From a bacterium (lineage in GTDB: Bacteria > Patescibacteriota > Minisyncoccia > Phycocordibacterales > UBA5272): a DNA stretch of 64,000 nucleotides. Below the pieces are notes generated by a model, which saw nothing but the letters and a program-made list of their open reading frames with translations, searched no databases and was not told the origin of the DNA. Below, piece after piece: positions 6,845 through 33,829 of this stretch; the stretch's first letter is position 1, and the number at the start of each line of letters is the position of its first letter. The position numbers were made by a program, and so were the translations under genes. The stretch covers positions 570 through 64,569 of the forward strand of contig JAYTSG010000004.1 in assembly GCA_043745785.1 (NCBI GenBank), written 5' to 3'.

Positions 6845-6930
6845 GACTTCTTTCAAAACTCTCCCATGTCATTCCTGAATTAGCAGATTCACGATTGGCG
6901 CTGAGCAGTTTTGTCATCAAAAGTGAGTCC
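6845..6930. repeat. MITE-like dispersed repeat copy (left end GACTTCTTTCAAAACTCTCCCATGTCATTCCTGAATTAGCA; right end degenerate)
   Basis: It shares GAC(C/T)TCTTTCAAAAG and the CTCCCA..ATTCCTGAAT core with copies at 11153, 28733 and 30006. It lies in the rplJ upstream leader region. Confidence 0.55.
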
Positions 6931-6970
6931 AGAATCTAGGTTTGTATTGTAGAAATGCAATACTAACCTA

Positions 6971-7010
6971 GATCCCCGGTTCATTTGGGTACAAATGCCC
7001 GAGGATGACA
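6971..7010. repeat. 40-bp exact dispersed repeat, copy A (GATCCCCGGTTCATTTGGGTACAAATGCCCGAGGATGACA)
   Basis: Identical 40-mer at 11094..11133. Both copies are preceded by CAATACTAAC. Confidence 0.9.
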
Positions 7011-7055
7011 AATGAAGGGAAATCGTACAGATATACTTCGAAGTCCAAAAACGAC

Positions 7056-7081
7056 AAAAGCGCATCTTACGATGCGCTTTT
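7056..7081. terminator. Bidirectional hairpin terminator (AAAAGCGCATC ttac GATGCGCTTTT)
   Basis: 11-bp perfect stem with A/T runs on both sides. It lies ~85 bp downstream of the stop of the 7167..10283 minus-strand gene. Confidence 0.75.
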
Positions 7082-7166
7082 GTCTAGCTATGCTCTACCC
7101 CCTTAAACTATTTGTTCAGAATATTACTTTCAAAGATATATTCTTTGAAAGTAATTCGTGACGCAA

Positions 7167-10100
7167 TTAGTTCTTGATTGAGTAGCTTGCTGTAGGGAAG
7201 TTGTAAATCTTAACTCCGTCGTATGTTGTGTTACCACCAACAACGTCAGTCCACTGGAAATCATTAGCAGTATTGGTAACCTGTGTTGAAACAGATACCG
7301 TAGCTCCTGATACAACTGTTCCTGTAGGAACAGCGTAAAGACTGAAAGTCTTAGAAGATCCAGCTGAAAGTGAATATGCTGTTGAGAATGAACACGTAGT
7401 AACGGTTGAAGCGATTGTACACGTTACATTAGGAATCGTTGCTGAACCATCTGCGAGTCTTGCTGAAGCGAGAGTAAGAGCTCCTGAGAGTCCTGACGCA
7501 CCGCTTGAGAACTTGAGCTGGTTAACATTGATTGAACCATTAGCGTCTGGAACGACAGTAACTTCGCCAATCTTATTCTCAGCACCAAGGATGAGACCTG
7601 ATTTTTGAACTGTGTCAACAGTAACTGATGGCTTTGATGCAACGAGTGTCATTGCATTTGCTGAAATGGCAGTAGTTGTTGAAACTGTAGTACCATTTCC
7701 TGATGTAGCCTCAATGTAAGTAAGTGTCGTTGTTGAGATGACACCTGCTGTCAGTGATCCACCAGTTGAAGAATTCTTAAAGCCTGAGTACTTAACGGTC
7801 ACTGGTACATCGGTACCGTTGAGACCAATTGCAATACTAAGACCTGTTACCTTTGCAATACCACCTACGACTGAAGCCTGTACGCCATTAACAGTAACTG
7901 ACTCTACTGAATCATTTCCTGTAATAGAGAAACGAAGCTCACGCACGGTTGCGGCACTGTCTTGTGCAGTCTTGATCTTGTAGGTTGCTACATTACTACT
8001 GACGCCACCGACCACAAATTGTGAAACTGGTGATGATGAGACAATAGCAGGGAGACCAAGAGTTGCCGCTGTTGTTGTAATAGCGACACCAAGTCCTGTT
8101 CCAGAGACGGTAGTATTAGTACCTGAAACTGGTCCACGAGTTGAAAGATCAAGAGTTGCTGTAACTGTACCTGAAGTAACACTTCCTATATCTGCATACA
8201 CATCGAATGTCTTTGTTCCGTTCATAGGGACAACAACATCAGAGAATGAAATAACAGTTGAAGAAGCGCTCACATTTCCTACTGGAGTACCAAGAGTCAT
8301 TGAACCAGTCTTAAGTGAAAGGTTAGTGATATTGGTAAGAGGATAACCAGTAGTACTAAGCGTGACTGTCGCGCTGTTTACTACTGCATCTTCCGCTGAA
8401 TCAGCCTGAAGGGTAAATGAACCAATACGTACGTTTGCAGTATTTGGAGCAACGGTAGCTGCAGCAAAACCTGATGTGCGTCCGTAGCTTCCTACACCAG
8501 ATGAAACAGTAAGGTTGTTACCATTAACACCTGAGCTAGCAACACTCACGATCTCGCTTGAGCTTTGACCTTGAGCATTGTTACCTGCACTACTAAGCTG
8601 AGCTAGTACAGAACCTGCTGTATAGCTTACTGATGTAGTTGACTTGATGTCAGCCTTTACCGATACAGTGACTGTCTGTCCTGCAGGGATAATGAGTGAT
8701 GAACCAAGATTATAGGTAAGAGCACCAGATGACCAGTTCTGTGAAGAACTGATTTGTCCACCATTGAGGTAAAGTCCTACGTTTGTAAGACCCGCCGCTG
8801 CTGGAGTCATTGAACCTAGTACTGGAGTGACATTAAGGGTATTAACCTTAACATCTTCTCCGTATGCCTTCATGGTAAATGAACCAATAGTCATGTTCGT
8901 AGCACCGCCAGTTACTTTACTAGCAACGAAAGCTGGGTCGACGTTCACAACCACGGTTCCTTTGTTGACGGTAATCTGTGGATATGCTGAGTTACTACTG
9001 TTAAGAGGTAGCGTTGCGACTGTTGCAGCAACGTTCACTCCAGTAAGATCACGATCTTCGAACATAAGGTCTGCCACGTTCTCAACTGAGAAAGTCATAG
9101 TACGGTTTGAACCTTTTACTATGTCTCCTCTCACATTGATAGTGTGTGAACCAGTGCGAAGGAAGTAAGGCATAGTCCCAAGATCAAAGACAACTTTATT
9201 GTTGTTCATTGCATTGATCATAGCTGGACCTGCAACCTTAGTGCCATCTACATAGAGTGAAAGATTTGCAACAGAGTCAACTGGTGCAGAACCGACAAAC
9301 TTAAAGGTAGCTGCCTTAAAGTAGACATCGCGAACACCTACACTTGCTGTTGCATCCCAAACGTTGTAGTTGGTTGTTCCAGCATCCACGGTGCGAGCAC
9401 CAGTGACAAGAGGGTTGAAGTTGACGCTTGCGGTAGTAATACCAGAAGCGACAGTAAGGGTGTTACCCATTACATTTGTGAAAGTAGAAGCTGCTGAACC
9501 CATAGCAGTGACGCTGTTGAGTTTAACACCAACTGCATTACCTCCAGATGTTGATGAAAGGTCAGCTCTAACAGTAATAGTACGAGTACCACTAACTGAG
9601 AAGAGTCCTGTTCCTGCATTAAAACGGATGTAACCACCTGTTACAACAGAAGCTGCGTCTGTAAGACGAGTGTTTCCATCGTAAAGGTATACGTTGTTAA
9701 GTGTAGAATCTGTAGAAACACCGATTCTTTGTAGTTCGATGTTTGTTACGGTTCCATTACCTTTGAAAGTAAAATCAGCGAGACGAGCTCCTGACTGTCC
9801 TTGTACAAGCTGTCCTGTAGGCTGTGATCCTGAAAGCATTACAGATACTGGACCTGTGTTACCGGTAGGTGGTACTGGATTTCCCGGTGTTGGCACAGGG
9901 TTACCAGTAACTGAACATAGCTGATTGAGGAGACCACGAGTTCCTGCGAACACGTTTCCTGTAGGAGAGTTGATTCCGAGTTCAGCAAGCTGAAGCATCT
10001 GGAATTTATTAACAGCGGCACGAGTAGCTGGACCAAACTTACTGGTTTCCATTCCTGGAGATCCAGCACCTGATTCAGCGACACGTGTCTGAGGGTACAT

Positions 10101-10283
10101 GTTAAGAACTTTTTGAAGATTCATGACTTGTACTCCTTTTGAACCCATCTTCATGTTCGTATTGAACACGTAAGAACAGTTCATGGTTGGAAGGGCGAGA
10201 GCTGCAGATGCTGTTGAAGCACCAACGATAGCTCCTCCTAGGGCTACTGCAATTGCAGCGGCCTTGATTGAGAGTTTACTCAT
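7167..10283 (-). CDS. Large secreted cell-surface protein: Sec signal peptide, N-terminal peptidoglycan-binding (PGBD-like) domain, Pro-rich linker, then ~900 aa of repetitive Thr/Ser/Val/Gly/Asn-rich beta-sandwich (Ig-like) repeats
   Basis: 1038 aa. The signal peptide is MSKLSIKAAAIAVALGGAIVGASTASA. The PG_binding_1-like segment is GSKGVQVMNLQKVLN...SKFGPATRAAVNKFQ. The linker is NPVPTPGNPVPPTGNTG. The remainder is low-complexity repeats, so the many antisense ORFs in the track are artefacts. Confidence 0.8.
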   Translation of the reverse strand: MSKLSIKAAAIAVALGGAIVGASTASAALALPTMNCSYVFNTNMKMGSKGVQVMNLQKVLNMYPQTRVAESGAGSPGMETSKFGPATRAAVNKFQMLQLAELGINSPTGNVFAGTRGLLNQLCSVTGNPVPTPGNPVPPTGNTGPVSVMLSGSQPTGQLVQGQSGARLADFTFKGNGTVTNIELQRIGVSTDSTLNNVYLYDGNTRLTDAASVVTGGYIRFNAGTGLFSVSGTRTITVRADLSSTSGGNAVGVKLNSVTAMGSAASTFTNVMGNTLTVASGITTASVNFNPLVTGARTVDAGTTNYNVWDATASVGVRDVYFKAATFKFVGSAPVDSVANLSLYVDGTKVAGPAMINAMNNNKVVFDLGTMPYFLRTGSHTINVRGDIVKGSNRTMTFSVENVADLMFEDRDLTGVNVAATVATLPLNSSNSAYPQITVNKGTVVVNVDPAFVASKVTGGATNMTIGSFTMKAYGEDVKVNTLNVTPVLGSMTPAAAGLTNVGLYLNGGQISSSQNWSSGALTYNLGSSLIIPAGQTVTVSVKADIKSTTSVSYTAGSVLAQLSSAGNNAQGQSSSEIVSVASSGVNGNNLTVSSGVGSYGRTSGFAAATVAPNTANVRIGSFTLQADSAEDAVVNSATVTLSTTGYPLTNITNLSLKTGSMTLGTPVGNVSASSTVISFSDVVVPMNGTKTFDVYADIGSVTSGTVTATLDLSTRGPVSGTNTTVSGTGLGVAITTTAATLGLPAIVSSSPVSQFVVGGVSSNVATYKIKTAQDSAATVRELRFSITGNDSVESVTVNGVQASVVGGIAKVTGLSIAIGLNGTDVPVTVKYSGFKNSSTGGSLTAGVISTTTLTYIEATSGNGTTVSTTTAISANAMTLVASKPSVTVDTVQKSGLILGAENKIGEVTVVPDANGSINVNQLKFSSGASGLSGALTLASARLADGSATIPNVTCTIASTVTTCSFSTAYSLSAGSSKTFSLYAVPTGTVVSGATVSVSTQVTNTANDFQWTDVVGGNTTYDGVKIYNFPTASYSIKN

Positions 10284-10928
10284 AATTTTTTTGAAGTGAT
10301 AAGATTTTTCTAACTCGTTTCTCTTTATAGAGTCAGCATTGTTTTTACTTGTGTAGTTTCGACATAACTAGTAAAAACAAACTAAATGACAAAACGAAGG
10401 GGTCGCTTATGCCAAAATACGAAGCGTTTTTATTTGCGTCACTATTCTGTTTTCAACGATCACTTTTATTCTGCCTTTTAAGATACTCTATAAATAACGT
10501 ATCTCAAATACCAGAGGACGCTCTCAAACAGAGACGTCTACAAGAGAGTATAGAGCTTCTTAAGAAAACTGCAAGGTTATTCCAAAATAATTTGAATATC
10601 ACAACTCTTCATCTTCTCAAAAAACTAATTTACAACTCTTGAAGTACATACAGTACCTAGAGGTAAGTATACCACAGAGTGGTCAAAAAGTCTACAAATA
10701 TAAAAGCTTTTTCCTCTTTTTGTATAAAAAGTAAGCTCAGTAGATTGAGGACTTTTCTTGACTCTGTGCGTATGTACGTCCCTCACAGATAAGGATACGA
10801 GAGAAATGAAGGATTTGGTTCACGAGAGACGTAAAGACATGAGGCCAAGATACCAGCGTCATACGTGAATGTGGTCATTCAGCGTCATTCGTATCTGGTG
10901 ATACAAATGATGGGCAGCACGCAACCCT

Positions 10929-11075
10929 AGTGTCATTCTGGAAGGGCTTTGTACACAAAGAACTATCCGGAATCCAGGTTGGTATTCCAGACATGAAATG
11001 CAGTTGAGTACTTTACAACCTCATTCAGATCTGGATTCCGGATATTTTTGAATACAAAAATTCCAGAATGACATA
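10929..11075. repeat. Palindromic (hairpin-forming) inverted-repeat element with nested IRs GTCATTCTGGA...TCCAGAATGAC and ATCCGGAATCCAGGT...ATCTGGATTCCGGAT
   Basis: The nested inverted repeats are read directly. They are related by motif (AACTATCCGG[A/T]ATCCAGGT) to the element at 12555-12800. Confidence 0.7.
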
Positions 11076-11093
11076 AAACTCAATACTAACATG

Positions 11094-11133
11094 GATCCCC
11101 GGTTCATTTGGGTACAAATGCCCGAGGATGACA
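11094..11133. repeat. 40-bp exact dispersed repeat, copy B
   Basis: Identical to 6971..7010. Confidence 0.9.
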
Positions 11134-11152
11134 CGCGAGGAGTAATACATGA

Positions 11153-11231
11153 GACTTCTTTCAAAAGTCTCCCACGTTATTCCTGAATCAGCCCCTAGGA
11201 CAACTTTGGTAATGAGGGTTTTGAAAGAGGT
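11153..11231. repeat. MITE-like palindromic element (TIRs GACTTCTTTCAAAAG / CTTTTGAAAGAGGT)
   Basis: ~79 bp. Terminal inverted repeats and an internal CTCCCACGTTATTCCTGAAT core are shared with copies at 6845, 28733 and 30006. Confidence 0.7.
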
Positions 11232-11453
11232 TTAGTGTATCTCACCTCTATTTCTCTCTAAAATAGAACCTGTAGCCCTTTATCGAAACTTACTACTATA
11301 TACCTAATGAGTCTCCCCTCAGTAAACTGTTCCTTCACTCACTCCATTCGTTATCTACAGGGAATGTTAGGGAACCAATGGTTTTCTAAACCCTTCCTTG
11401 TGGAACACCTTCTCAGCAGAGCTGTAGGGAATAGAACAAGTAAAGAGAGAGCT

Positions 11454-12290
11454 CTAACGAAGCACATATCTACTCCATCTTTTTTCACCAATTCTTTCAA
11501 GGACATGGTCAAAGACAAGTGTATTGAGTTCTCTCTGTATTGTTTTTTCACTACAACCTTTTATCTTGCTTGATATGTCTTTTATACTCACATCTACACC
11601 TACAGAGAAGAGTCCCAATATTTGTTCCCTTCTACTCTGCTTTCTAGCTTTAAATATTCCCGCTGGAATTTTTCTTTCGATTACCATTCTTTGATACTGA
11701 TAGGGAGAGCTAACATTTTCTTTGTTTGTTTTATCATCTAATTTCATCGTATAAGCTTCTCCTGTTGTCAGAGCTTCACTCTTTTGTGTAGGTTTAGTTA
11801 TCAAATTTTGATCAGCTTTTTCTTCTACGAAAACTGCTCCAATACCTTCTTCCTTAGGGACAAATGTTGGAGGTAACCCTACAGAATGATTCTTTGCCTC
11901 GGTGAGCACTATGTCATCTTCTTTTAAAAGAAGGGCACTCGAAAAAGTCGGGCGTCTTTTTTGGAGAGCGTTACTAAGGACATTGAACCCTTCGACGAGA
12001 AGTCTTCCGTTCATCTCAGAGACAGTCCCTGAGAAGGTTGCAACATGCAGAAGTGAGACAACTTCTCTTACTTCATTTAAAGACAAAGAGTATTCACGAG
12101 CAATGTCACTTGTTTCAGAAGAGGCAACTTTAGTGACATGTCCAAGTATACTCAAAGCTGAAGATCGAAGTCTATTTTTTATAGGATCTTGAGCACTAAT
12201 TAAGTCAGTAACAAGATAAAGGCCCGTCACTAAACGCTCTGTTTTCTGTGCTATCAAGACTTCCTGTTGTGTGTTTTTTGTCTCTGACAT
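11454..12290 (-). CDS. Putative transcriptional regulator: novel N-terminal domain plus C-terminal winged-helix HTH (DeoR/ArsR-like)
   Basis: 278 aa with an ATG start. The C-terminus ...RREQILGLFS...VSIKDISSKIKGCSEKTIQRELNTLVFDHVLERIGEKRWSRYVL is an HTH followed by a wing. The gene is flanked by 1.2 kb and 0.75 kb of repeat-rich non-coding DNA. Confidence 0.5.
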   Translation of the reverse strand: MSETKNTQQEVLIAQKTERLVTGLYLVTDLISAQDPIKNRLRSSALSILGHVTKVASSETSDIAREYSLSLNEVREVVSLLHVATFSGTVSEMNGRLLVEGFNVLSNALQKRRPTFSSALLLKEDDIVLTEAKNHSVGLPPTFVPKEEGIGAVFVEEKADQNLITKPTQKSEALTTGEAYTMKLDDKTNKENVSSPYQYQRMVIERKIPAGIFKARKQSRREQILGLFSVGVDVSIKDISSKIKGCSEKTIQRELNTLVFDHVLERIGEKRWSRYVLR

Positions 12291-12295
12291 ACTGT

Positions 12296-12482
12296 CTTTT
12301 GTGTTGTAATACTGTAGAGAAGATGATCTGTATTATGTCTTTTTAAATGCTAATAATGTCTTTTAAATACTTGTCTTTTTATTTGTCCTTTTAAGGGACA
12401 AGAGGCTCGTCTGTCCCCTATTCTATTCTTTTTTTATTTTCTGTCAAAATAGACAAACTTAAATTTTATTGTCTTTTATAAA
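12296..12482. promoter_or_regulatory. Array of 5-6 direct iteron-like repeats TGTCTTTT(T)AAAT plus a small hairpin (GGGACA..TGTCCC) in the promoter region of the 11454..12290 regulator gene
   Basis: Copies are read at ~12293, 12349, 12367, 12375, 12388 and 12471. They lie immediately upstream of the minus-strand start at 12290. Confidence 0.45.
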
Positions 12483-12524
12483 TGAGCTCTACCTATTTTC
12501 TATTTCAGAAATTAATCTGTGTAA

Positions 12525-12800
12525 ATTCTGTATCTGTATCTGTGTCTGTGTCATACCGGAAGGATTTTGTACTCAAAAACTATCCGGTATCCAGGTCTAT
12601 AATTGTAGAGAGTATCCCCCTAGAAAAAATGCCAGTACGTTAAACATTCACACTGGGTGCGTGATTACTCTGGTTTGACCTATCGTTAAAGTCAAAACCT
12701 GGATCCTGGATATGATGAGTACATCATATCCAGGATGGTGCACTCGTTATTCTGGAATGGCATGCAAGATACTCAGTGCGACTGGAGACTGGAGACTGGA
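12525..12800. repeat. Composite repeat region: (TCTGTA/TCTGTG) tandem run, inverted ATCCGGTATCCAGGT / ACCTGGATCCTGGATAT / CATATCCAGGATGG motifs, and a (GACTGGA)x3 tandem run
   Basis: Read directly. It shares the ATCCGG(A/T)ATCCAGGT and TTCTGGAA(G/T)GGC motifs with the element at 10929-11075. Confidence 0.65.
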
Positions 12801-13058
12801 ATACTTGATTCTGACATACTAGACCTCTTTCAGATGTCTTATGTATACATGTGTAAACATCTAGAATACATAGAGCTGTAATAGTGCTTAGCTATATGTA
12901 TTTGCAAACCAAATGGGTGACTCAACTCCGCGAGGAATTATGTGACCACATAACTGAAATAACTGACGAAATGAGCTTTATTGTCACCACAAAAATGTCT
13001 CATATTTTGCTATACTAGAAGCAACTCATTATTAAAATAAAAACGTTTGACTACACAT

Positions 13059-15359
13059 ATGGCAGAATCAAAAGACGAGAGAAAAAGAAAAAATAAACGG
13101 GACCCTTTGCACACAGAGACTGTTCTTGCCATGCTCTCAGTAATGACTCTCATCTTTGCATTATTACTCGCACTTGGCGCGACACATTTAGGAGGTAAAG
13201 GCGGAGAAATTATTTTTAAAGGATTTTATTCTCTCTTCGGTGTCTTTGCTTTTGGTATACCTTTTGTTTTTCTTTCTCTGACCTACTACCTTTGGAAAGA
13301 AGAGCTTCCTGACCTCCCTCTTTTAAAAAGTATCGGCACTGGACTACTTCTTTTTGGAATCGCCATTGTAATGGAAGTGAGTGGTAGCTCTATCTCTCAT
13401 CCAGCCGGAATGCTTGGTGAAATGCTTTCAATGCCACTCTTAAACTACTTCTCTCCTTTCTTTGCCCTTGCTATTGGTAGCGCTATTATCTTTAGCGGAC
13501 TACTTTTGTCACTGAACAGAAAGCCAACATTTAGTTTCTTTAGCACTATGTTTCTCTTTATTTATGACTTCCTGCCCTCTTTTTCACTCTTTAAAAAGAA
13601 AGTGTCGATACAAGAAGCAGCAACTATCCCTGTTATAGAAGAAGAATTTGAAGAGATACTCCCTCTTGGTGCAGATTTTTTTGAAGAAGAGGAACAAGTT
13701 CGTCGAAAAGATGTGCGAGAAGAACTCTTTAAGACTTTACATGTCGATGACGACGAAGAGATAAAGCCAAAAAAAGCGAAAGAAGAAAAACCAAAGCAAA
13801 TTATTCTGACACCAGAATTTGTTGCGCCACCTCTCTCACTACTTAATGCTGATTCTGGTAAAAGCGGAGCGGGAGACAGTCGTGCAAAAATGGCGACCAT
13901 ACAACGTACTCTCGAACATTTTAAAATACGTGTAGAAATGGGAGAGGTTACCGTCGGGCCGACAGTAACCCAATTTACCTTAAAACCAGCACAAGGAGTA
14001 AACCTTTCCAAAATTGCGGCGTTACATGACAATCTGTCTATGGAACTCGGTGCTGAATTTCTCCGTATCGAAGCACCAATACCAGGAAAAACACTCGTCG
14101 GTATTGAAATCCCTAACGAAAGAAAGTCAACTCTTGGACTGCGGTCAATGCTTGAACTTGATCAATTTATTGAGTCAAGCGCACTGACACTTGCTATTGG
14201 TAAGAGTATTGTTGGTAAACCTATTTACGGAGACCTCTCAAAGATGCCACATCTCCTCGTCGCTGGAGCCACTCGTACTGGTAAATCAGTCACCCTGCAG
14301 AATCTCCTCATTTCTCTCCTTTATAAAAATTCCCCGTATGACCTTAAGCTTATTATCCTCGATCCAAAACGTGTAGAATTTACTGCATACAATCATTTAC
14401 CCCACCTTTATACACCTATTATTAAAGAGCCAAAAGGAGCTATCAAAGCTCTCTCTTGGTCTATACAAGAAATGGAAAGGCGTTATGAAGTCTTGTCTGA
14501 ATATGGTCAAGTAAATGTTGACGACTATAATAAAAAAATACTTTCTCCTGCACTTGAAAAAGCAAGAAAGAAACTCAAGGAAACAGGAGAAGAGCCAAAA
14601 AATCTTCCACCAAAACTACCGTATATCATTATTATTTTTGATGAATACAATGACTTCATGCTTTCTTATCCAAAAGAAATTAGTCCACTCATTACCTCAC
14701 TTACTCAAAAAGGACGTGCGGCTGGAATACATCTCATACTCGCAACACAACGTCCTGATGTGAAAGTTATTACGGGTACCATTAAAGCGAATATTCCAGC
14801 TCGTATCGCATTGAAAACTACGTCACAAATAGACTCACGCACTATTTTGGACACTTCTGGCGCAGAAGACCTTCTTGGTAACGGCGACCTGCTTTATATG
14901 GCGAGTGACAATCCTCGCCTTGTACGTATACAGGCACCTTTTGTTTCAACCGAAGAGATACGTGCCGTTGTATCCCATATCAAAGAATCATTCCTTGATT
15001 TTATTCCTGATCATATTGATTTCTCAAAAGTAAAAGCAACACAGTCTCACGACAACGACAATAATAATGAAGAGTCTGGTGCTGAACCAGAAAATGACGA
15101 GGATTATATGAGCGCCAAGGATTATGTGCTTTCTACAGGCAAAGCTTCAACTTCTTCATTACAAACTGCCTTTAGATGGGGGTATAACAAAGCTGCACGT
15201 ATCATGAATGATCTGGAAAGATATAGTATTATCGGCCCTGCTCGCCCAGGAGAAAGATATAGAGAATTACTTACAAGTAGCACAGAAAGCTCAAAAACAT
15301 CTTCAGAAAGAGAAATAGAAAGCGACCCGCTCGATACCATGTTTGAAAATACAAAATAA
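13059..15359 (+). CDS. ftsK: DNA translocase FtsK/SpoIIIE (N-terminal TM domain, acidic linker, RecA-like motor, C-terminal gamma wHTH)
   Basis: The Walker A motif is VAGATRTGKSV. The beta-domain ...HLILATQRPDVKVITGTIKANIPARIALKTTSQIDSRTIL... and the gamma domain ...ASTSSLQTAFRWGYNKAARIMNDLERYSIIGP are present. The track ORF starts at TTG 13047, and the first ATG is at 13059. Confidence 0.9.
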   Translation: MAESKDERKRKNKRDPLHTETVLAMLSVMTLIFALLLALGATHLGGKGGEIIFKGFYSLFGVFAFGIPFVFLSLTYYLWKEELPDLPLLKSIGTGLLLFGIAIVMEVSGSSISHPAGMLGEMLSMPLLNYFSPFFALAIGSAIIFSGLLLSLNRKPTFSFFSTMFLFIYDFLPSFSLFKKKVSIQEAATIPVIEEEFEEILPLGADFFEEEEQVRRKDVREELFKTLHVDDDEEIKPKKAKEEKPKQIILTPEFVAPPLSLLNADSGKSGAGDSRAKMATIQRTLEHFKIRVEMGEVTVGPTVTQFTLKPAQGVNLSKIAALHDNLSMELGAEFLRIEAPIPGKTLVGIEIPNERKSTLGLRSMLELDQFIESSALTLAIGKSIVGKPIYGDLSKMPHLLVAGATRTGKSVTLQNLLISLLYKNSPYDLKLIILDPKRVEFTAYNHLPHLYTPIIKEPKGAIKALSWSIQEMERRYEVLSEYGQVNVDDYNKKILSPALEKARKKLKETGEEPKNLPPKLPYIIIIFDEYNDFMLSYPKEISPLITSLTQKGRAAGIHLILATQRPDVKVITGTIKANIPARIALKTTSQIDSRTILDTSGAEDLLGNGDLLYMASDNPRLVRIQAPFVSTEEIRAVVSHIKESFLDFIPDHIDFSKVKATQSHDNDNNNEESGAEPENDEDYMSAKDYVLSTGKASTSSLQTAFRWGYNKAARIMNDLERYSIIGPARPGERYRELLTSSTESSKTSSEREIESDPLDTMFENTK

Positions 15360-15361
15360 CT

Positions 15362-15697: not shown

Positions 15698-15718
15698 AGC
15701 ACTTTTATACTTACCCTT

Positions 15719-20735: not shown

Positions 20736-20892
20736 GTTTACCTGCTTAAAACCAGGAACAGTGCATGTGTAATTTATTTATAGTCCCTCGCATCTGTGAG
20801 CAGGCATTACTGAGAGATTCGCAGTCTAAACTGACGTCACCACAGTAAGCAACTTCTTTTCTATATTCTGTTTTCAGAATACTTTCACTGCT

Positions 20893-21990
20893 TTAAAGTT
20901 TGCTTACATCTTGTTGACAAGAATACAATTGATTTCCTCCTGTTAATCCAGCTTGACTGCAAGTGAGGCCTGGTCCACAAAATTTATTATTATGAGCTTC
21001 TGGATTACAATATGATCTCTCTTTTAATTCCTCTGCTCCAATAGCGCAATATAATTGCGCTCCTCCTTGGGCATAACATTTACCAGCGTCTCCATTAAAA
21101 GAACAATTTGCCCATAGACTTTTACCATAGCACGTTTCTCCGTTTGATATGCCTGTACTTGGGACTTTACAATAAAATCCGCCGTAAAGATTACTATCAC
21201 ATGTGCCTTTTGTCCCTCCATTATCAGTACATGACTCATTTTGAGTAGAACAATTGGCGTCATCTTGTACAGAAACAGGAGCAGTGCCACCAGCACAGAA
21301 AAGAGCCGTGCGATTGGCATTGTAAGCACAACCCCCACTGATAGTTCTTCTATCATCGTCTCTAAAGGTACAAGGACTTCTTTCCCCTTTCCCGCTACAT
21401 GCATCAAGGGACGCTTGATTGACATTCACAGAACTCACTGCCTTAACAGTACAGAGCACTGGACCGAATGCATTGGAACAAACCCCTACTGAACCATTGG
21501 GTAATGTACAACTTGCTCCGACCTGTTTCCCTGGAGACTTTGCACAATCATCAGAGACTTCGGACTGCGGATCTATCGACTGATTGGTTGGAGTAAGTCC
21601 AGTCGAAGTTTTAGTGCAATCCGTCACAAAATTGAGGCATGGCTTTGCTATTGTGGTAACATCTTTAATCCCCAGCGTCTGCTGCATAAAGTAGATAATG
21701 CCATAGAGAGAGAAGATGATAAAGATAGCAAGGAGAGACCAGAGCATAAATTTTTTTCCTTCATCTGCTTTTTTTGCTTCCCCTTCTTTGATAGACCAGA
21801 TGAATCTGACGAGGCCAGCAAAGAAAGCGACGATAGCAAGAGACATAAGGAGCACTCCGACGACAGCAACTACATTGCCGTTGACGTTTTCTATGAACTT
21901 GCCGAGTTCGTTAACTTGTACGGAAGAGAAGCCGGAGGCAGATGTGTAAGAGAGGGAGAGTGAGGCAAGAAAAATGGTGAGTAGTCTCAT
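20893..21990 (-). CDS. TrbC/VirB2-like pilin-fold N-terminal domain (signal peptide + two TM helices) fused to a ~250-aa extracellular domain with ~38 cysteines
   Basis: The signal peptide is MRLLTIFLASLSLSYTSASG. TM1 is VVAVVGVLLMSLAIVAFFAGLV, followed by a short charged loop. TM2 is FMLWSLLAIFIIFSLYGIIYF. The C-terminal ectodomain is rich in C, G, S, T and N, with many CxxxC / GxC spacings. Confidence 0.6.
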   Translation of the reverse strand: MRLLTIFLASLSLSYTSASGFSSVQVNELGKFIENVNGNVVAVVGVLLMSLAIVAFFAGLVRFIWSIKEGEAKKADEGKKFMLWSLLAIFIIFSLYGIIYFMQQTLGIKDVTTIAKPCLNFVTDCTKTSTGLTPTNQSIDPQSEVSDDCAKSPGKQVGASCTLPNGSVGVCSNAFGPVLCTVKAVSSVNVNQASLDACSGKGERSPCTFRDDDRRTISGGCAYNANRTALFCAGGTAPVSVQDDANCSTQNESCTDNGGTKGTCDSNLYGGFYCKVPSTGISNGETCYGKSLWANCSFNGDAGKCYAQGGAQLYCAIGAEELKERSYCNPEAHNNKFCGPGLTCSQAGLTGGNQLYSCQQDVSKL

Positions 21991-22289
21991 AAAAGGCTTA
22001 TTTTATATAATAGTTTTAGTATAGCAAGGGATTTATTACTTTTCTCTGTTTATACACAGATGGTCTATGTAGATTTCTTTTGACTAGTAGGCATTTTTTA
22101 TAATGTTCATTGACCTCTGACACACTATTGAGTGCATTATTTTTAAGAGCTAAGAAATAACCTACCTCTGGAAACAAGTCTACTCACCTACAAGGTTGTC
22201 GTAGAGATTGATTTAACAATGACTCACTTATGAATACTTATTAGAGAGATACTCAACCAAGTTTCAAAAAATATCATCTTTTCGTTGGG

Positions 22290-23012
22290 TTAGTTAAAAA
22301 AACCTGATAGTGCGTCAGTAAAAAACATAAGTAGTCCCTGCACAAAAATAACGAAGACAGAGAAAATAAGCACGGCAAGGATGTATCCATGAGCCTCTTT
22401 TATTTTCTCTGGTTTTCCTTGTGCTAAGACATACTTAGCCCCCGACATAAACCAGCCAACAACCATAGCAGGGAGTACTACCCAGTTCCATACCATGTTA
22501 CCAAAAATCTTTACCCACACCACTGGTCCACCGGGAAAAAGTGGTGGCGCTTCACTGGCATAGGCATGGTCAATAGGGAGTAATGACGAGAATATCTTGA
22601 AGTATTCAAATGGTTTACGGTAAGCTGGGTCAAGACCAAGTCCGGCTAATATGGATAAAGCTTTTAAACACACAAATATTCCAAAAAATCCTCCAGCAAT
22701 CTGTAGTAATCGTTTTTTCATATTGGTATGTATCTGAGCTTGCTCACCAAACGCTCCAGCAGCAACATCTTTAGCATAATAAAAACCAAACATTATTAGT
22801 GAAAAAACAGCTCCAAGAAGTAGAAGTAGCTGTACATTATTATCAAAATAAGAAGGAATATCTGATACTTTGCATTGTTGCGTATTCATATCTGGTCCTG
22901 GCAGACAAACGAGCTTAGACAAACCAGATCCCTGCGCATGAACACTAACTAAACCGACAAACATAATCACTGTACTCAGTAGTCCCCTCAGGAATATTTT
23001 TTTACTTTGCAT
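22290..23012 (-). CDS. Membrane protein with signal peptide and TrbC/VirB2-like two-helix core plus additional TM helices
   Basis: An ATG at 23012 gives MQSKKIFLRGLLSTVIMFVGLVSVHAQ, a signal peptide, followed by 4-5 TM helices. The track ORF extends to 23072 and overlaps the upstream gene. Confidence 0.5.
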   Translation of the reverse strand: MQSKKIFLRGLLSTVIMFVGLVSVHAQGSGLSKLVCLPGPDMNTQQCKVSDIPSYFDNNVQLLLLLGAVFSLIMFGFYYAKDVAAGAFGEQAQIHTNMKKRLLQIAGGFFGIFVCLKALSILAGLGLDPAYRKPFEYFKIFSSLLPIDHAYASEAPPLFPGGPVVWVKIFGNMVWNWVVLPAMVVGWFMSGAKYVLAQGKPEKIKEAHGYILAVLIFSVFVIFVQGLLMFFTDALSGFFN

Positions 23013-24306
23013 ACATATCATTGAGCGCTGACACAAAAGTAGCAGATGCTTCAGAGTCTCCTTTTTTGCCACTTACTATGTCATTTACTGCAGTAGTGAG
23101 TAAATTAGTCGATGCCGATTCCCTCAAATCATACCAGCCACGTGTTACCAGGATGCTCGCTTTCATGCCCGAGTCGAGATTTTGATCAGCGGAAAGCACA
23201 GAGCGTATAGGGCTTAATTTATAGGTGGCAACATCGAGTAAACTGGCATACTTACTAGTGGCAAGCGTCGACTGCGCGACATACGCGGTATTTAATAATG
23301 CAGGCGGTGTACGCTTCATCACCGCTATGCCATACATCTTCATGCTGTTAGCTCGCGATTCATACCCTCTTGCTTGCGGAAATGGACTCAAATAAAAATT
23401 GAGACGCTCATTCTTCGCTATAATATCTTTATATTCTCCTGAGTATCCAAAATAAAGGGCAAGTTTACCCGCAGAAAATGCATCAATATCGGTCATTCCT
23501 GTATAATTATTCCACGAATAGGACTCTTTGCTCGGATCAGAAAATTGTGTAAAAAGCTTCAGAGATTCGCGTAGCGGTAGTACGACACTTTGTTCCGAAA
23601 GCGGTACATTACCACTAAAATGAAGAGCTCCATTATTATCCACTGACACTGGATCTTGGCCAAGAGACTCAACAAGACTCATAATAATTTCTTTGGCATG
23701 AATGACGTTAGTCATCGAACCGAGACCCACACCATAGGTAATAAATGAACCATTTTGGTCTCTCTTGGTAATCTTTGGCGTCACAGAGAGCAGATCGTCC
23801 CAATATGCAGGGACTGTCGCTAAGCCATTTTTAGAAATGATGTCACGATTTACAAACATCATCATTGGCTCAACTGTCATAGGGAATGCCAAGATACCTT
23901 CCCCTGTCAAAAAGATAGAGGCGCCATCAATATAAGCATTTTTAAAATCATTCACCGGAAAAGAAGCAAGTGGATAAGGATTTACTCTCTGCTTTTGAGA
24001 CAAAATAGTCTTATAATTAGCAAGTATCATGTCTGGCCCCTCGCCATTAGCGAGTGCGTTAACTAAAATATCCTCAAATCTATCTTCTGGCATTTCTTCA
24101 TAAGAAACAGAATAGGTCTTTGCGTCAACATTAAATTTATTGAGTACGTCATTGACCTGATCTGCAGGAAGTGTCCCCCACATGACTAGTTTACCGATAG
24201 TTTTACCACTCTTTTCTGAACAGCCAATAGGAAGCTTACAAGAAAAGAGGAGAAAGGCAAAGACAGCTGACATGATAGCTATAGCAGTAATGATTTTTTT
24301 ATACAT
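23002..24306 (-). CDS. Lipoprotein, extracellular solute-binding protein (ABC-transporter substrate-binding protein family 1-like)
   Basis: 434 aa. The signal/lipobox is ...AFLLFSCKL. The overall composition and length fit a periplasmic-binding-protein fold (sugar/oligosaccharide-type SBP). No adjacent permease or ATPase genes are present. Confidence 0.55.
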   Translation of the reverse strand: MYKKIITAIAIMSAVFAFLLFSCKLPIGCSEKSGKTIGKLVMWGTLPADQVNDVLNKFNVDAKTYSVSYEEMPEDRFEDILVNALANGEGPDMILANYKTILSQKQRVNPYPLASFPVNDFKNAYIDGASIFLTGEGILAFPMTVEPMMMFVNRDIISKNGLATVPAYWDDLLSVTPKITKRDQNGSFITYGVGLGSMTNVIHAKEIIMSLVESLGQDPVSVDNNGALHFSGNVPLSEQSVVLPLRESLKLFTQFSDPSKESYSWNNYTGMTDIDAFSAGKLALYFGYSGEYKDIIAKNERLNFYLSPFPQARGYESRANSMKMYGIAVMKRTPPALLNTAYVAQSTLATSKYASLLDVATYKLSPIRSVLSADQNLDSGMKASILVTRGWYDLRESASTNLLTTAVNDIVSGKKGDSEASATFVSALNDMYAK

Positions 24307-24309
24307 ACA

Positions 24310-24834
24310 CTAAAGGCTTTTTGCAATAAATGCATAGTGATAATCTCCCGCTGGTAAACGAGCCATGATACGAAATCCGCCAGAGACAAAAAGGTCTTCC
24401 GCCTGACTTTCAGTGAAAACATGGTCTTTGTGTGGTCCGATACCTGCATGACTTTTTGACCAATCGACGACGAGGGCAAGACCTTCTGGAATAAGAACTC
24501 TTTTGATTTCTTTGAGTGCCTTCTTTTTATCTTCTATCATAAAGAGAGTGTTGGAAACAACAACAGCATCTAGTGAATACGAGTCGAGATACAGCCCTTC
24601 CTCTATATCGGCCCAAATAATATCGACATTAACATAACCAAGTGCATCGAGAGTCTTTTTTGCAGAGTCTAATACTTCTTTATGTATATCAACAGCATAT
24701 ACTTTTCCTTCTTCTCCAACTTTTTTAGCAAGTGAAATGAGATACGCCCCACTCCCCGAACCAATATCAGCTACGACCCCCCCATCTCGTATAAAAAGAT
24801 GATCTATCAAATGTTCTGGTGTGAGAAATGCCAT
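24310..24834 (-). CDS. Class I SAM-dependent methyltransferase
   Basis: Motif I is VVADIGSGSGAYLISLA, followed by an acidic residue after beta-2 (VYAVDI). 174 aa. Confidence 0.75.
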   Translation of the reverse strand: MAFLTPEHLIDHLFIRDGGVVADIGSGSGAYLISLAKKVGEEGKVYAVDIHKEVLDSAKKTLDALGYVNVDIIWADIEEGLYLDSYSLDAVVVSNTLFMIEDKKKALKEIKRVLIPEGLALVVDWSKSHAGIGPHKDHVFTESQAEDLFVSGGFRIMARLPAGDYHYAFIAKSL

Positions 24835-24910
24835 GAGAACAGTATATAGCCTTTATGGTGCAAGAGCTAGGGGAGAATACGGGTCATATTAAAACATCTA
24901 ACAGATACTT

Positions 24911-25765
24911 TCACCCTATTTTTATTAAAATAATGCCCACGACACAAACCATCATGAAAAGAACTTTTTGAGCAGTCATTTTTTCTTTATACAAAAAAAC
25001 ACCTAGAATTGCAGTGATAAAAATATAACCAGAAGCGATCGGATATACACCCGAAAGCGGACCAGTAGCGAGAGCCTTCAGAAAGGCATACCCAGCAATT
25101 GTCATAAATAGTCCGGCTGCAAGTGATATCTTCCAAGTATCTTTAATGATATGGAGATGTATAATACTTTTTCTTTCAAATGTATATACAAGAAGAAGCG
25201 AACAGACCACTGCCCCAAGATACTGATATGGTGCATAATGAAACATTAATTCATGAGTTGCTCCAAACTTTTGTATCACCTTTCCAAGAGTAGACGAAAT
25301 GATAATACCTAAGCCAAGCGTGATTGAGTGAGTGTCTAAAATGAGTTCTTCTTTTTTACGAGAATATATAAATACCAAGCAGAGAATAATACATATACCG
25401 AAATACTGAACTAACGATACCCGTTCTGAAAAAAGAAGAATACCCAAAAATACAGTAACCACGTTAGAAAGAGCAGAAGTTACTGGGAGTAAGGTAGTAG
25501 TTTCCATTCTATGAAGAAGAATTTTTTGAAGCGCAGTAGTAACCGCAAAGCAAATACCCCAAAGAATACCGGTCCATGAAATCGGAGCGAGATTATCTAT
25601 TCCAAGATAAAAGATAGCGATGACAAAGCTAAGTAGCAGTGAGAATACATTCATCCAAAAAGTTGAATGAAGAGAACTGTATCTTTTAAACGATGGCATC
25701 TTAAAAAATGCCGTCGACACACCTACTCCTACCATCGCAATCAGCGCGTAGAATACCCAATCCAT
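24911..25765 (-). CDS. DMT-superfamily (EamA-like) transporter, 10 TM
   Basis: 284 aa. Two repeated 5-TM halves are typical of EamA/RhaT permeases. Confidence 0.7.
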   Translation of the reverse strand: MDWVFYALIAMVGVGVSTAFFKMPSFKRYSSLHSTFWMNVFSLLLSFVIAIFYLGIDNLAPISWTGILWGICFAVTTALQKILLHRMETTTLLPVTSALSNVVTVFLGILLFSERVSLVQYFGICIILCLVFIYSRKKEELILDTHSITLGLGIIISSTLGKVIQKFGATHELMFHYAPYQYLGAVVCSLLLVYTFERKSIIHLHIIKDTWKISLAAGLFMTIAGYAFLKALATGPLSGVYPIASGYIFITAILGVFLYKEKMTAQKVLFMMVCVVGIILIKIG

Positions 25766-25768
25766 TTT

Positions 25769-28237
25769 TTAAAGCAGATTGAAACTCGCAACGCTGTCTC
25801 CTTCGCGTAATTTCATAATTCTCACTCCTTGAGTATCACGTCCAAGTGTCGGCACTGAGGAGAGCAGAGTTCGAATGACTTGAGAAGCCTTGGATACTGC
25901 AAGAAGTTCTACTATTTCTTCTGTTACAACACGTGCAATCATGAGCTTGCCAGTCTTTTCTGTCACTTTCACTGTCTTGATACCACTTCCACCACGCTTT
26001 TGGATTTTATACTCGGTCATTTTAGTCTTCTTTCCATAGCCATTTGCCGTCATGATGAGTAGCTCTGTACCCTTTTGTCCTTTTGCTATTTTGTCAGTTG
26101 CAACGATAATGTCACCTTTATCTAACTTCATACCAATAACCCCTGCTGCAGTACGTCCCATTTCGCGCACATCAGAATGGAGAAAACGTATTGACTGACC
26201 ATTCTGTGTTGTCATAACCACAGAATCTTCATCTCCCACAAAAAGAGCACAGAGTAACTCGTCTTTATCTTCAAGTTTAATAGAAATAAGGCCATTTCTT
26301 CGCACATCTTTAAAGCTTTCTGCAGCACTCTTTTTCACGGTACCAAGTTTGGTAACCATCATGAGAGATACTCCAGTGAGCTCCTTCATATCTTTTGGCA
26401 TAGCGAGAATAGATGTCACTTTTTCACCATCTGAAAGCTGAAGGAAATTCATAATACTCTTGCCTCTCGTGGCACGTTTTCCTTCTGGTATGTCATACAT
26501 TTTAATCTGATACGCTTTACCTTTGTCAGTAAAGAAAAGAAGATCAGAGTGAGATGAAGTCTGTAATGACATGGTTACAAAATCTTCTTCTTTGGTGTTC
26601 ATATCAACCACACCAACTCCCCCGCGCTTTTGTACACGGAATTCGTCTGGGTCAGTACGCTTTACATACCCTCCTGATGTAAAGACTATCATTTCTTCAC
26701 GCTCTGGAATAAGATCTTCTGGATTAAATTCTTTAACACGATGCTTGACTATCTTTGTTCTTCTTTCATCTCCATATTTAGCTTTGATCTCCTCAAGCTC
26801 AGCACGAATGATAGCAATCATTTTCTTTTCACTAGCGAGTATTGCGCGTAAGTCTCCTATGAGTGTTTGCACTGCTTTGAGCTCATCTTCAATTTTTTTC
26901 TTTTCAAGAGAGGCAAGGCGTTGTAGCTTCATTTCTAAAATAGCTGTCGCCTGTATCGAAGAAAAATCAAATTTCTTACAAAGATTTGCATGTGCATCTG
27001 GCGTGTCTTTTGACTTCTTGATGAGCTGTATGATTTCGTCTATATGATCGAGTGCTTTCTTGAGACCAAGCAGTATATGTTCTTTTTCAAGAGCTCGCGC
27101 GAGATCGTATTCTGTACGACGACGCACCACTTCTTTGCGATGACCAACGAATGCCTCAAGAGCTCCTTTAAGTGAAAGTGTCTGGGGAATACCATCAACA
27201 AGCGCCACCACATTGAAATGGAAAGCACTTTCAAGTTCTGTATGTTTATAGAGATAGTTAAGTATCTTTTGTGGTTGAGCCCCACTCTTTAAGTCTATCA
27301 CCACACGTATGTCTTTGGTCGACTCATCACGAAGCCCTTTAATGCCTTCAATCTTTTTCTCACGCACATGGTCGGCGATATTTTCTATCAAATTACTTTT
27401 GACTACACGAAATGGAAGTGAGGTAATGATGATTTGGAATTGTCCATTTTTGGTTTCAAAGACTTCTGCTTCGCCACGTACGACTACTCCCCCGCGACCT
27501 GTAGCGTATGCCTGACGAATATCAGCTTGTCCAAAAGCTACGCCACCAAGAGGAAAATCAGGTCCTTTGACAAACTCACAGAGATCTTCTGTAGTTGCAT
27601 CTTTATTTTCTACGAGATGTATAGTCGCATCCATAATTTCTGTAAGATTATGCGGCGGGATATTGGTCGCCATACCGACAGCAATACCGAGAGTACCATT
27701 AAGAAGAAGGCTTGGAACAGCGGTCGGAAGTACTACAGGCTCTTTTTTAGTCCCGTCATAGTTTGACACCATATTCACGGTATTTTTTTCAATATCACGC
27801 ATCATCTCCATAGATATCTTTGACATTTTTGCTTCGGTATAACGATACGCAGCGGCTCCATCTCCATCAACAGAACCAAAGTTACCTTGCCCTTGTACGA
27901 GAGGGTATCTGTAGGAGAAATCTTGAGCAGACTTGACCATCGCGTCATATACAGACGCATCACCATGAGGGTGATAGTTACCTAGCACCTCTCCGACAAT
28001 AGTTGCCGATTTACGAAACTTTGCCCCTGGGGTGAGCCCCATATTGTTCATAGCAAAAAGAATGCGGCGATGTACTGGTTTGAGACCGTCACGAGCATCA
28101 GGGAGAGCTCTCGCAGTAATAACACTCATCGCATAGTCGAGATATGCGGTACGCATTTCTTTGGTAAGAGAAACTGGAAGTAAATTATCCCCCTTTGGAG
28201 GAATTATTTCTTCACTTTTTTCAGATTTTTTCGCCAT
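25769..28237 (-). CDS. gyrA: DNA gyrase subunit A
   Basis: 822 aa. ...[33 protein letters not shown]...[13 protein letters not shown]... includes the active-site Tyr region (AAAYRYTEA). The C-terminal beta-pinwheel repeats are present. Confidence 0.95.
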
Positions 28238-28325
28238 GAGGACAGTATAGCAAAAAAAAGGAAAGAAGGCGAGCTAAAGGCGGTAAAAATATCTTATAAA
28301 AGCCTTACAAGCAAAGGTCTAAATT

Positions 28326-28604
28326 TTATTCACTCTTATTGATTACTTCAAGAGTCCTCCCTGTTTTAACAGCTCCGAGCACCTCTCTTATTTGAGAAGT
28401 AAACAGATCAAAGGGTGATGGGTAGGATGTAGAAGCAACTGGCACTCCTTCTGCGTTATTTGTGTTAGATACACTACCAATAGAGACATAAAGAAAAACA
28501 AACATGAGCATGCCGACAGTAGCGAACAAGAGAGCGTGTACTTCACGTATTGAAGACGACTGTCTTTTGACATGATGAAGATATTTTGAAAGTAAGCGAC
28601 GCAT
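28326..28604 (-). CDS. Hypothetical small membrane protein (92 aa)
   Basis: ATG start with one central TM segment. Low confidence. Confidence 0.3.
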   Translation of the reverse strand: MRRLLSKYLHHVKRQSSSIREVHALLFATVGMLMFVFLYVSIGSVSNTNNAEGVPVASTSYPSPFDLFTSQIREVLGAVKTGRTLEVINKSE

Positions 28605-28732
28605 GCAAATAGTATACCACTTTGGTTTATCATTAATAATTCTAGATCTTCCGTCATTTATTGTTAATGAGCAGAGAAAGTATTTTTATATTTTGAACTA
28701 AATCATATTTTTTTCTTTCTTTTTATACAATA

Positions 28733-28890
28733 GACCTCTTTCAAAAGTCTCAAAACTTTCCTGCATTAGGATTCCTGCGAAGACAGGCCCAAGACATGAA
28801 TTTGATAATTCAGAATACAGTATGTATTATAATACTATTTGATTTCAATTTTTACTTAGAGTGATAGCAGAGAGGCTTTTGAAAGAGCTC
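28733..28890. repeat. MITE-like palindromic element, longest copy (TIRs GACCTCTTTCAAAAGTCTC / AGGCTTTTGAAAGAGCTC)
   Basis: ~158 bp. The ends match the family at 6845, 11153 and 30006. The internal ATTCCTG...AATTCAGAAT motif is shared. Confidence 0.7.
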
Positions 28891-29159
28891 TACTACTTTC
28901 CAGAATCATCAAGAAATCTAGCTTCGAAGAGTTAGAAATAACCACAATTTCTAATAAGACAAATCTGAATTTACCTTTATTCCTTCCTACGCTATATGCA
29001 ACCCGCAAGAGTTATCTTAGGGGTTGACCGTCTCATCTGCCTTGTTCTAAGAGTTGTGGGAGCTTTTTGAACTACTGAGAAAGGTCTAGGTCTTACAAAA
29101 CTAATTCTATTTCTTTTTAGTTGCATGCCGAACAACTTTGAAAATATCTCAACTAAACA

Positions 29160-29795
29160 CTACATCTCATGGAAAAGCACCACTTCACCAAGTTTTCCTT
29201 CTATATCTTTTCTCTTGATAGTCAATTTTTCTACTGGCTGCAAACCTTCTGCTCCCGATTCTTTTAGAAAGAGAGGCAATGATATTTCATCATAATCCAT
29301 AGGGATGATGAGCTTTGGTTCGAGAGACACTGCCAGCTTGTGTGCATCATAAGCATTTAAGAGAAAATCGTCACGTCCAACAGGAATAAAAAGCACATCT
29401 GTCTCATCGATAACTTCTTTATGATGAGGGTCGAGCATATGAGAAAGCGCACCCAGGAAAGTGATACGTATACCGTCAAAGGTAAAAACATAGCTCGCAT
29501 TCTGATACATTTTATCTGTTGCGCCATCCTTTAGTTTTGTCTCTGTGCAAAAACTTTTAATAAAGACCCCGGCGACTTCATATTCCCCTGGACCTCTTAT
29601 AACATAGGGAGTTTTATCACTTTTCTCTACCTGTTCCGCACCATTATAGTCGACATGGTTGACGGTTATCAGACAGACATCTGCCCCATATTTTGTAATC
29701 TTTCCTTTACTGTCTTTCGATATAGGATTAAGCGCAAATACCGTATCCCCTACCTGAAATTTAAAATGCTGCTTTCCAAAATTCGTGATGATCAT
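29160..29795 (-). CDS. MBL-fold (beta-lactamase superfamily) metal-dependent hydrolase
   Basis: 211 aa. ...DVCLITVNHVDYNG...ITFLGALSHMLDPHH...LFIPVGRDD... shows His/Asp metal-ligand spacing typical of the UPF0173/MBL fold. Confidence 0.65.
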   Translation of the reverse strand: MIITNFGKQHFKFQVGDTVFALNPISKDSKGKITKYGADVCLITVNHVDYNGAEQVEKSDKTPYVIRGPGEYEVAGVFIKSFCTETKLKDGATDKMYQNASYVFTFDGIRITFLGALSHMLDPHHKEVIDETDVLFIPVGRDDFLLNAYDAHKLAVSLEPKLIIPMDYDEISLPLFLKESGAEGLQPVEKLTIKRKDIEGKLGEVVLFHEM

Positions 29796-30005
29796 GGGGA
29801 TATTTTACCACAAAAATGAGAAACAAAAAATGTTGTTTCAATGAGCTGTGAGTTACTAATAAGTCTTCGTCTTAAAGTTTCTTTTTCAGAATGAAAACCC
29901 CTTAGCACAACTAAAATCTAGTCGCGCGCGTAGTTTAAAAGAAACACACATTTAGTGCTACTACTCAGAGGAAAAGCACTCTACCTTTTTACAACACTTA
30001 TAATA

Positions 30006-30092
30006 GACTTCTTTCAAAACCACCCCCCTATCATTCTTGAATTGGGTAATTCAGGGATGATAACTTTGTTTGTTAGGGTTTTGAAAGAGGTC
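30006..30092. repeat. MITE-like palindromic element, near-perfect copy (16-bp TIR GAC(T/C)TCTTTCAAAACC)
   Basis: GACTTCTTTCAAAACC...GGTTTTGAAAGAGGTC with an inner IR CATTCTTGAATT / AATTCAGGGATG. 87 bp. Confidence 0.8.
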
Positions 30093-33826: not shown

Positions 33827-33829
33827 ATG

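Follow-up and report, generated by a model that had tools for sequence, protein, structure and literature searches.

Here we describe a family of short palindromic repeats in a 64,000-nucleotide stretch of bacterial DNA (contig JAYTSG010000004.1, positions 570 to 64,569 of the forward strand), called the window below and numbered from its first letter. With a probability of about 0.85 these repeats are miniature inverted-repeat transposable elements (MITEs), namely 80-160-bp non-coding derivatives of an insertion sequence (IS) of the ISAba27/ISCysp19 type, an IS5-family element whose transposase carries HTH_Tnp_4 and DDE_Tnp_4 domains (NF033581). The original prediction, made from the letters of the window, had already proposed a MITE-like family, and this is borne out: the terminal inverted repeats (TIRs) of the copies are the ends of autonomous IS5-family elements in several phyla, and a piece of the transposase gene, from its 3' end, appears to be kept in the right arm. 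The window has a G+C content of 39.6%, uses the standard genetic code and gave no tRNA match; genetic code 25, considered since some open reading frames (ORFs) look fragmented, was rejected, the long ORFs being intact under code 11. Because the nearest protein homologues bear the source names Candidatus Parcubacteria, Nomurabacteria and Paceibacterota, the host is placed among Patescibacteria (CPR, for Candidate Phyla Radiation).

Four clear copies, 80-160 bp in length, and two to three remnants were found in the 64 kb. The clear copies, designated A to D, lie where they had been predicted, with the boundaries 6844-6930, 11152-11233, 28732-28891 and 30005-30093 once the terminal A/T is added, and all four are indeed intergenic and free of ORFs. 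They share the plus orientation, opposite to the neighboring genes, and their termini read (T)AGACYTCTTTCAAAA, inverted at both ends. Copy D (30005-30093, +; repeat-finder family I24) is the best preserved, with flanks AAT and ATT; taken together with the flanking bases, the inverted repeat extends to TAATAGAC...GTCTATTA, with 20 of its 21 positions paired, and the copy holds an internal 15-pair hairpin. Copy C (28732-28891, +) is a long variant of 160 nt, about twice the length of the others, with ends AGACCTCTTTCAAAAG ... TTTTGAAAGAGCTCT and flanks AAT and ACT. Identical versions of copies C and D are present in the public contig L001, from Logan SRR23617280 (comparison loci are cited here by L numbers). 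Copy B (11152-11233, +) has the ends AGACTTCTTTCAAAAG ... TTTTGAAAGAGGTTT, mutated terminal bases and the non-identical flanks ATG and AGT. In copy A (6844-6930, +; left flank AAT at 6841-6843) the left TIR AGACTTCTTTCAAAAC is intact; the right end, previously called degenerate, is present and is broken by a 6-nt insertion, GTTTTG[TCATCA]AAAGTGAGTCC.

Similarity between the copies is concentrated in parts of the arms. Copies A and B are 85% identical over the left 48 nt and B and D 83% identical over the right 36 nt, while the remaining interiors hardly align. The core CTCCCA..GTYATTCCTGAAT that had been described as common to the family is accordingly found in A and B and is only loosely present in D and C. 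An nhmmer profile was built from copies A, B and D and the foreign copy L027; the scores of these three window copies (E = 1e-15 for A, 3e-22 for B, with A, B and D spanning this range) are partly circular because they built the profile, whereas copy C, which was outside the input, was recovered by its left end with E = 5e-5. Independently, a repeat finder picked up the family as D8, D12, D13, D16, I9, I11, I13 and I24, and the 14-nt terminus GACYTCTTTCAAAA occurs 12 times in the window with at most two mismatches, against 3.3 expected; a count of 12 was reached in none of 100 dinucleotide shuffles. Three more sites may be remnants: a probable decayed copy at 3646-3730 (+; GTCACTTTCAAAAA ... 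TCATTCTTGAACTAGTAAGTTCA; family D14) with a weak score of E = 0.045, a probable solo left end at 4682-4757 (+; TAGACTTTTTTCAAAACTCTGAC) with no recognizable right TIR and a weak score of E = 0.06-0.17, and a possible solo end at 12820-12841 (+; TAGACCTCTTTCAGATGTCT; family D17) with a very weak score of E = 5.

The link to a known IS group came from a BLAST search of one short foreign element against plasmids, which matched the end of a 1212-bp element of Gloeothece. Between TIRs of GACCTCTTGCAAAA it encodes an 'IS5-like element ISCysp19 family transposase', and the frameshifted product matches NCBIfam NF033581 (IS5 family) together with Pfam HTH_Tnp_4 and DDE_Tnp_4. Six further plasmid-borne relatives were found in Nostoc, Pseudanabaena, Chroococcidiopsis, Spiroplasma, Acinetobacter (ISAba27) and Deinococcus; the Prokaryotic Genome Annotation Pipeline (PGAP) names members of this group ISAba27 or ISCysp19. 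All seven full-length plasmid elements encode this transposase, and their ends are (T)AGACCTCTTGC(A/G)AAAGT or closely similar; for the group the consensus end is AGACCTCTT(G/T)C(A/G)AAA. When metagenomes were scanned with the aligned plasmid IS transposases, 80 loci encoding relatives came up, and in 58 of them TIRs of the form AGACCTCTT(G/T)C(A/G)(A/T)AA are paired 870-1420 bp apart, a few pairs being degenerate (with the seven plasmid elements counted in, 65 of 87 scanned loci). Where most plasmid copies have G (TCTTGC) the window elements carry T (TCTTTC), and this exact variant also occurs in the autonomous elements L179, L190, L209, L214, L217 and L224. The window elements resemble ISAba27/ISCysp19-type ISs in their TIRs, in their A-N-T flanks and in a subterminal block from the end of the transposase gene, and differ in being 80-160 bp long and without a transposase gene.

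ISAba27 transposes in Acinetobacter, with disruption of carO and adeN, and intergenic sites receive about 70% of its insertions (PMC9771954, PMC5343135). A literature search with the TIR as a text string returned no match. In five of the seven plasmid copies (L127 and L131-L134) the transposase gene changes frame within the conserved ERPKK(K) region, where there is a run rich in A, a split reading frame that suggests programmed frameshifting.

Short elements with the same ends are present in other genomes. Species-representative genomes were scanned with the loose palindromic pattern TCTTTCAAAA-N(40-70)-TTTTGAAAGAG, and the matches listed include many unrelated palindromes; among these matches are short elements that have TAGACCTCTTTCAAAAG...CTTTTGAAAGAGGTCTA as their ends and come from lineages far apart. 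Many are copies of 68-70 bp in a metagenome-assembled genome (MAG) of the Desulfobacteraceae (bin_101) and in Desulfatirhabdium butyrativorans, and single copies, again among the matches listed, occur in Abditibacterium, a Moraniibacteriota MAG (L027), another Patescibacteria MAG (L104) and Wolbachia. The termini TAGACCTCTTTCAAAAG and the A-N-T targets of the 68-70-bp elements are those of the window copies, the interior is unrelated, and this combination of conserved ends with unrelated interiors points to a protein that recognizes the ends. The identity of the ends across phyla is a property of the parent IS group. Unlike the window copies, the 68-70-bp elements form many near-identical copies with intact 3-bp duplications; every copy in the listed loci (L008, L009, L011, L023, L024, L028, L032, L045, L051, L055, L061, L084, L091, L108, L113, L115 and L117) has an intact A-N-T duplication, and this family looks recently active. 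A scan of viral contigs with a 17-mer gave six solitary matches, apparently due to chance or coding sequence.

The flanks bear on the mode of insertion. With AGAC...GTCT taken as the element, the triplet on either side is nearly always A-N-T. Among the matches listed, 21 of 32 short elements that have these ends in other genomes show identical 3-bp flanks, whereas shuffling the right flanks 5000 times gave 7.9 on average and 16 at most; AAT and ATT make up most of the identical triplets, and AGT and AAA occur once each. Identical A-N-T flanks also occur in four of the seven plasmid IS copies, and the metagenomic IS copy L151 has the pair CTG/CTG, which is not A-N-T. A 3-bp target-site duplication (TSD) and AT-rich targets are stated for IS5 and PIF/Harbinger elements (PMC4122938). 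In the window five of six flanks are still A-N-T, and the middle base never matches.

Part of the parent gene seems to survive inside the copies. In the full-length ISs the 3' end of the transposase gene (..NLIAGIYNFEL..) reaches to about 20-35 nt from the right terminus and reads, from that terminus, (T)TCAAAGTT(A/G)TAAATTCC. The right arms of copies D and B and of the Moraniibacteriota copy L027 carry CAAAGTTAT (the form in D) or CAAAGTTGT, that is, the block CAAAGTT(A/G)T, at 22-27 nt from the terminus in the MITEs and 17-36 nt in the ISs, an offset within about 10 nt. In the IS the block encodes ..YNFE.. of the transposase, and its columns are nearly invariant in a joint alignment of MITEs and ISs; it was found in L181, L190, L214, L217 and L222 and in diverged forms in L203 and L216. 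Because the right arm keeps these last transposase codons, the copies look like internal-deletion derivatives. We attach moderate confidence to homology with the parent IS beyond the TIR, which would consist of this short stretch.

Comparison with relatives adds a view of the orthologous sites. No member of the family was found in the loci of 12 metallo-beta-lactamase (MBL)-fold genes of relatives (78-91% protein identity), and no copy occurs in the 18 loci of relatives in all, comprising the MBL loci and the rplJ loci L227-L238. The spacer between ligA and the MBL gene, in which copy D sits, measures 555 nt in the window and 72 nt in L138 and L139. At rplJ, relatives with 84-93% identical L10 protein have a promoter and leader almost identical to those of the window, without the element. 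Their promoter consists of a -35 box TTGAA(A/T), a 17-nt spacer ending in TGG and a -10 box TA(T/C)A(A/C)T, and the leader starts with GTAAACCTAAGAAGTAGGTG; by this phylogenetic footprint (L227-L237) the rplJ promoter of the window would lie at 6814-6842 (-), with the -35 box TTGAAT at 6837-6842 and the -10 box TACACT at 6814-6819. Position 6844, where copy A starts, is one base upstream of this -35 box, and the copy for this reason lies outside the rplJ leader in which it had been placed; its TIR supplies a second TTGAAA 14 nt upstream of the rplJ -35 box. An upstream ORF of 1038 aa and its terminator are common to L235, L236 and the window, and the distance from terminator to -35 box is 26 nt in L235, about 88 nt in L236 and 212 nt in the window, the extra DNA of the window being copy A and a second repeat (see below). 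Presence of the element in the window and its absence at the orthologous sites of relatives is, as judged from these alignments, a comparison of filled with apparently empty sites. At the MBL locus the exact empty site is not recoverable, the relatives being too diverged or rearranged, so that spacer lengths and absence of the element are what is compared; in L236 nothing aligns with the site of copy B.

The rplJ promoter and leader (about 170 nt; 6644-6842, -) are near-identical in L227-L234, where L10 is 93% identical, and recognizable in L235-L237. The leader contains a terminator-like hairpin at 6716-6736, ATACAAGGAAAACCCTTGTAT followed by CATCTCGTTT, and gave no match to the Rfam L10 leader model. 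An outward promoter or -10 box at the TIR junction was considered and dropped, since its basis was weak consensus matches.

In the proposed mechanism a DDE transposase supplied in trans would bind the TIRs of about 16-20 bp, excise the element and insert it at AT-rich A-N-T sites through a 3-bp staggered cut; intergenic copies would be tolerated and would later decay. Several results weigh against the MITE reading. The TSDs that were looked for at the window copies are no longer intact: none of the three complete copies (B, C and D, with the flanks given above) has an identical pair, and direct proof of transposition in this genome is therefore lacking. Among the full-length metagenomic IS copies only 27 of 60 have identical flank pairs, although many of those contigs are about 1 kb long and their flanks may be chimeric. 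Comparison of 45-60 nt of each end of 46 full-length ISs gave nothing convincing beyond the TIR and the CAAAGTTAT block, and no sampled full-length IS matches the MITE further inside or qualifies as its parent. Neither tblastn nor a profile search of all six frames detected a transposase homologue in the 64-kb window. The filled and empty sites are, finally, not comparable to the exact base, because the relatives are 78-93% identical at the protein level.

The family had also been described as proliferating. This is not justified, because the copies have drifted apart, the duplications beside them have decayed, one terminus is disrupted and the 64 kb contain no transposase; the window copies are best read as old insertions, fossils of past mobilization rather than an active burst. 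It is also conceivable, though not likely, that the genome lacks a cognate transposase and that its MITEs, like those of other Patescibacteria, Desulfobacterota, Abditibacterium and Wolbachia, were mobilized in trans from a host bacterium, phage or plasmid, or that, alternatively or additionally, copy A was co-opted as the upstream boundary of the rplJ promoter.

The hairpins themselves invite readings in terms of RNA. Former MITEs could have been exapted, with the plus-strand hairpin acting as a structure in RNA or DNA, such as a terminator or an insulator against antisense transcription, or with copy A aiding the upstream region of the rplJ promoter. Such a role would fit the single orientation of all four copies opposite to the flanking genes, the position of copy A next to the -35 box with its additional TTGAAA, and the 15-pair hairpin of copy D, which is followed on the plus strand by ACTTTGTTTG and so resembles a terminator with a T-rich tail. 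In the three copies tested the plus strand folds better than the minus strand (-24.8/-21.2, -28.6/-22.6 and -38.7/-29.7 kcal/mol), because the mismatches are G-U on that strand. However, the same-sign counts of 3/3 (folding) and 4/4 (orientation) are not significant (p about 0.25 and 0.125), near relatives have the same rplJ promoter and leader without the element, the interiors are not conserved between copies and the covariation term of RNAalifold is positive, so that exaptation is regarded as unlikely. Still far less probable is a conserved cis-regulatory RNA, of the ribosomal-protein leader or riboswitch-like kind, that is palindromic by chance; it is the least credible of the readings weighed here. 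The copies do fold stably (z -3.4 to -5.9) and copy A does lie upstream of rplJ, but the conserved L10 promoter and leader are situated downstream of copy A, the other copies flank unrelated genes (MBL, ligA and ORFs of unknown function), and conservation lies in the termini that match IS ends and not in the interior. Rfam searches matched no family at gathering or E-value thresholds, and with relaxed thresholds returned only spurious miRNA hairpin matches. Covariation pointing to a riboregulator had been named as the observation that would speak for such an RNA; RNAalifold on three window and three foreign copies gave only the terminal stem, with a positive (unfavorable) covariation term. A conserved riboregulator is rejected because there is no covariation and no Rfam match and because relatives do without the element.

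Within the mobile elements, a MITE of the IS630/Tc1-mariner type was also weighed, an element GAC...GTC flanked by a 2-bp TA duplication. Copies C and D, like most foreign copies, do have TA at both ends, and in the full-length ISs the left and right bases adjoining TA agree about as often as chance predicts (the 27 of 60 already mentioned). In the short elements, by contrast, whose assembly is reliable, the base outside TA covaries as a direct repeat in the 21 listed cases, far above the shuffles, the flank pair of L151 is CTG/CTG, and the autonomous elements with these ends encode IS5-type and not IS630-type transposases. The IS5-type elements and the 3-bp covariation argue against this type, and we consider it very improbable. 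Repetitive extragenic palindromic (REP) sequences and bacterial interspersed mosaic elements (BIMEs), mobilized by REP-associated tyrosine transposases (RAYTs), are imperfect palindromes of 20-40 nt with a conserved 5' GTAG-type head and are often clustered; they were rejected, the window copies being longer, bounded by IS5-type TIRs and without a GTAG head.

A second repeat adjoins two of the MITE copies, downstream of A and upstream of B. It is 53 nt long, occurs at 6958-7010 and 11081-11133 (+) with 96% identity and has the sequence CAATACTAAC.T.GATCCCCGGTTCATTTGGGTACAAATGCCCGAGGATGACA. The first copy together with the preceding hairpin has a very stable fold on both strands (z = -6.7); the second is stable on the minus strand only (z = -2.9, against z = -1.0 on the plus strand). 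The repeat was absent from every comparison locus examined, the syntenic upstream region of rplJ in L235 included, and Rfam gave no match to it; a further small element, mobile or structured, may be present here.

Among further features of the window, the 1038-aa ORF (7167-10283), whose function is unknown, is preceded by a stretch of about 300 nt, at 10226-10581 (-), which is 85% identical to L236 413-759 and in which no gene is called; a further short match to L236 lies at 10637-10694 (-). The stretch could be a conserved long 5' untranslated region, a small ORF or a non-coding RNA. The intergenic motif ATTCGC(G/A)(C/A)ATAATACCC(C/T)GTGGCGTAA(G/T)TCC is found at about 30225-30275 (-), upstream of the MBL gene, and in the relative L138 (7265-7310) downstream of the MBL gene. 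Loosely similar motifs of the CATAATTCCTGCGG type are present in the L10 leader (6742-6760) and at 12929-12950, and short intergenic tandem repeats at 3603-3635 (GTTCTAG)n, 12529-12553 (TCTGTA/TCTGTG)n and 12785-12803 (CTGGAGA)n. A run of pilin-like genes (33071-39835, -) shares an N-terminal signal of the GFTLIE type (repeat families D4 and D5); two larger genes of the run contain internal repeats of about 120 nt (D1-D3), and the first of these, covered by L001, matches Pfam N_methyl and Vgb_lyase and faintly NHL, SBBP and SGL.

Among known systems, the Tourist-like MITEs of plants and animals (PIF/Harbinger), which tend to lie near genes, are likewise non-autonomous deletion derivatives with short TIRs and a 3-bp AT-rich TSD, and their transposase clade is related to that of IS5. 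They are eukaryotic, duplicate TWA where the elements described here have A-N-T, and share no sequence similarity with them; PIF/Harbinger elements also require a second, Myb-like protein. The relation of PIF/Harbinger to IS5 and the 3-bp TSD are documented (PMC4122938). Among bacterial families, Correia/NEMIS (Neisseria), RUP (Streptococcus pneumoniae), Nezha (cyanobacteria) and Chunjie (Geobacter) are also short, intergenic, TIR-bounded repeats with stable hairpins; they differ in TIR sequence, parent IS family and host phylum, and have many near-identical copies where those of the window are few and diverged. They have TIRs in common with an IS that need not be present in the genome alongside them, as in the case of Nezha and ISNpu3 (PMC3184786). 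A literature search found no paper describing MITEs in Patescibacteria, the two papers naming both, once each, concerning other topics by title and abstract. The host group and the specific family are new, and the mechanism is standard transposon biology.

Genomes of Patescibacteria are about 1 Mb in size and usually described as poor in mobile DNA. Fossil IS5-type MITEs account for unusually long spacers such as that between ligA and the MBL gene, and caution is advised against annotating MITE hairpins as regulatory RNAs. The copies are a marker for strain typing and for tracing horizontal exchange; if the transposases did come from outside, the MITEs would be a sign that ultra-small episymbionts exchange genetic material with their hosts.

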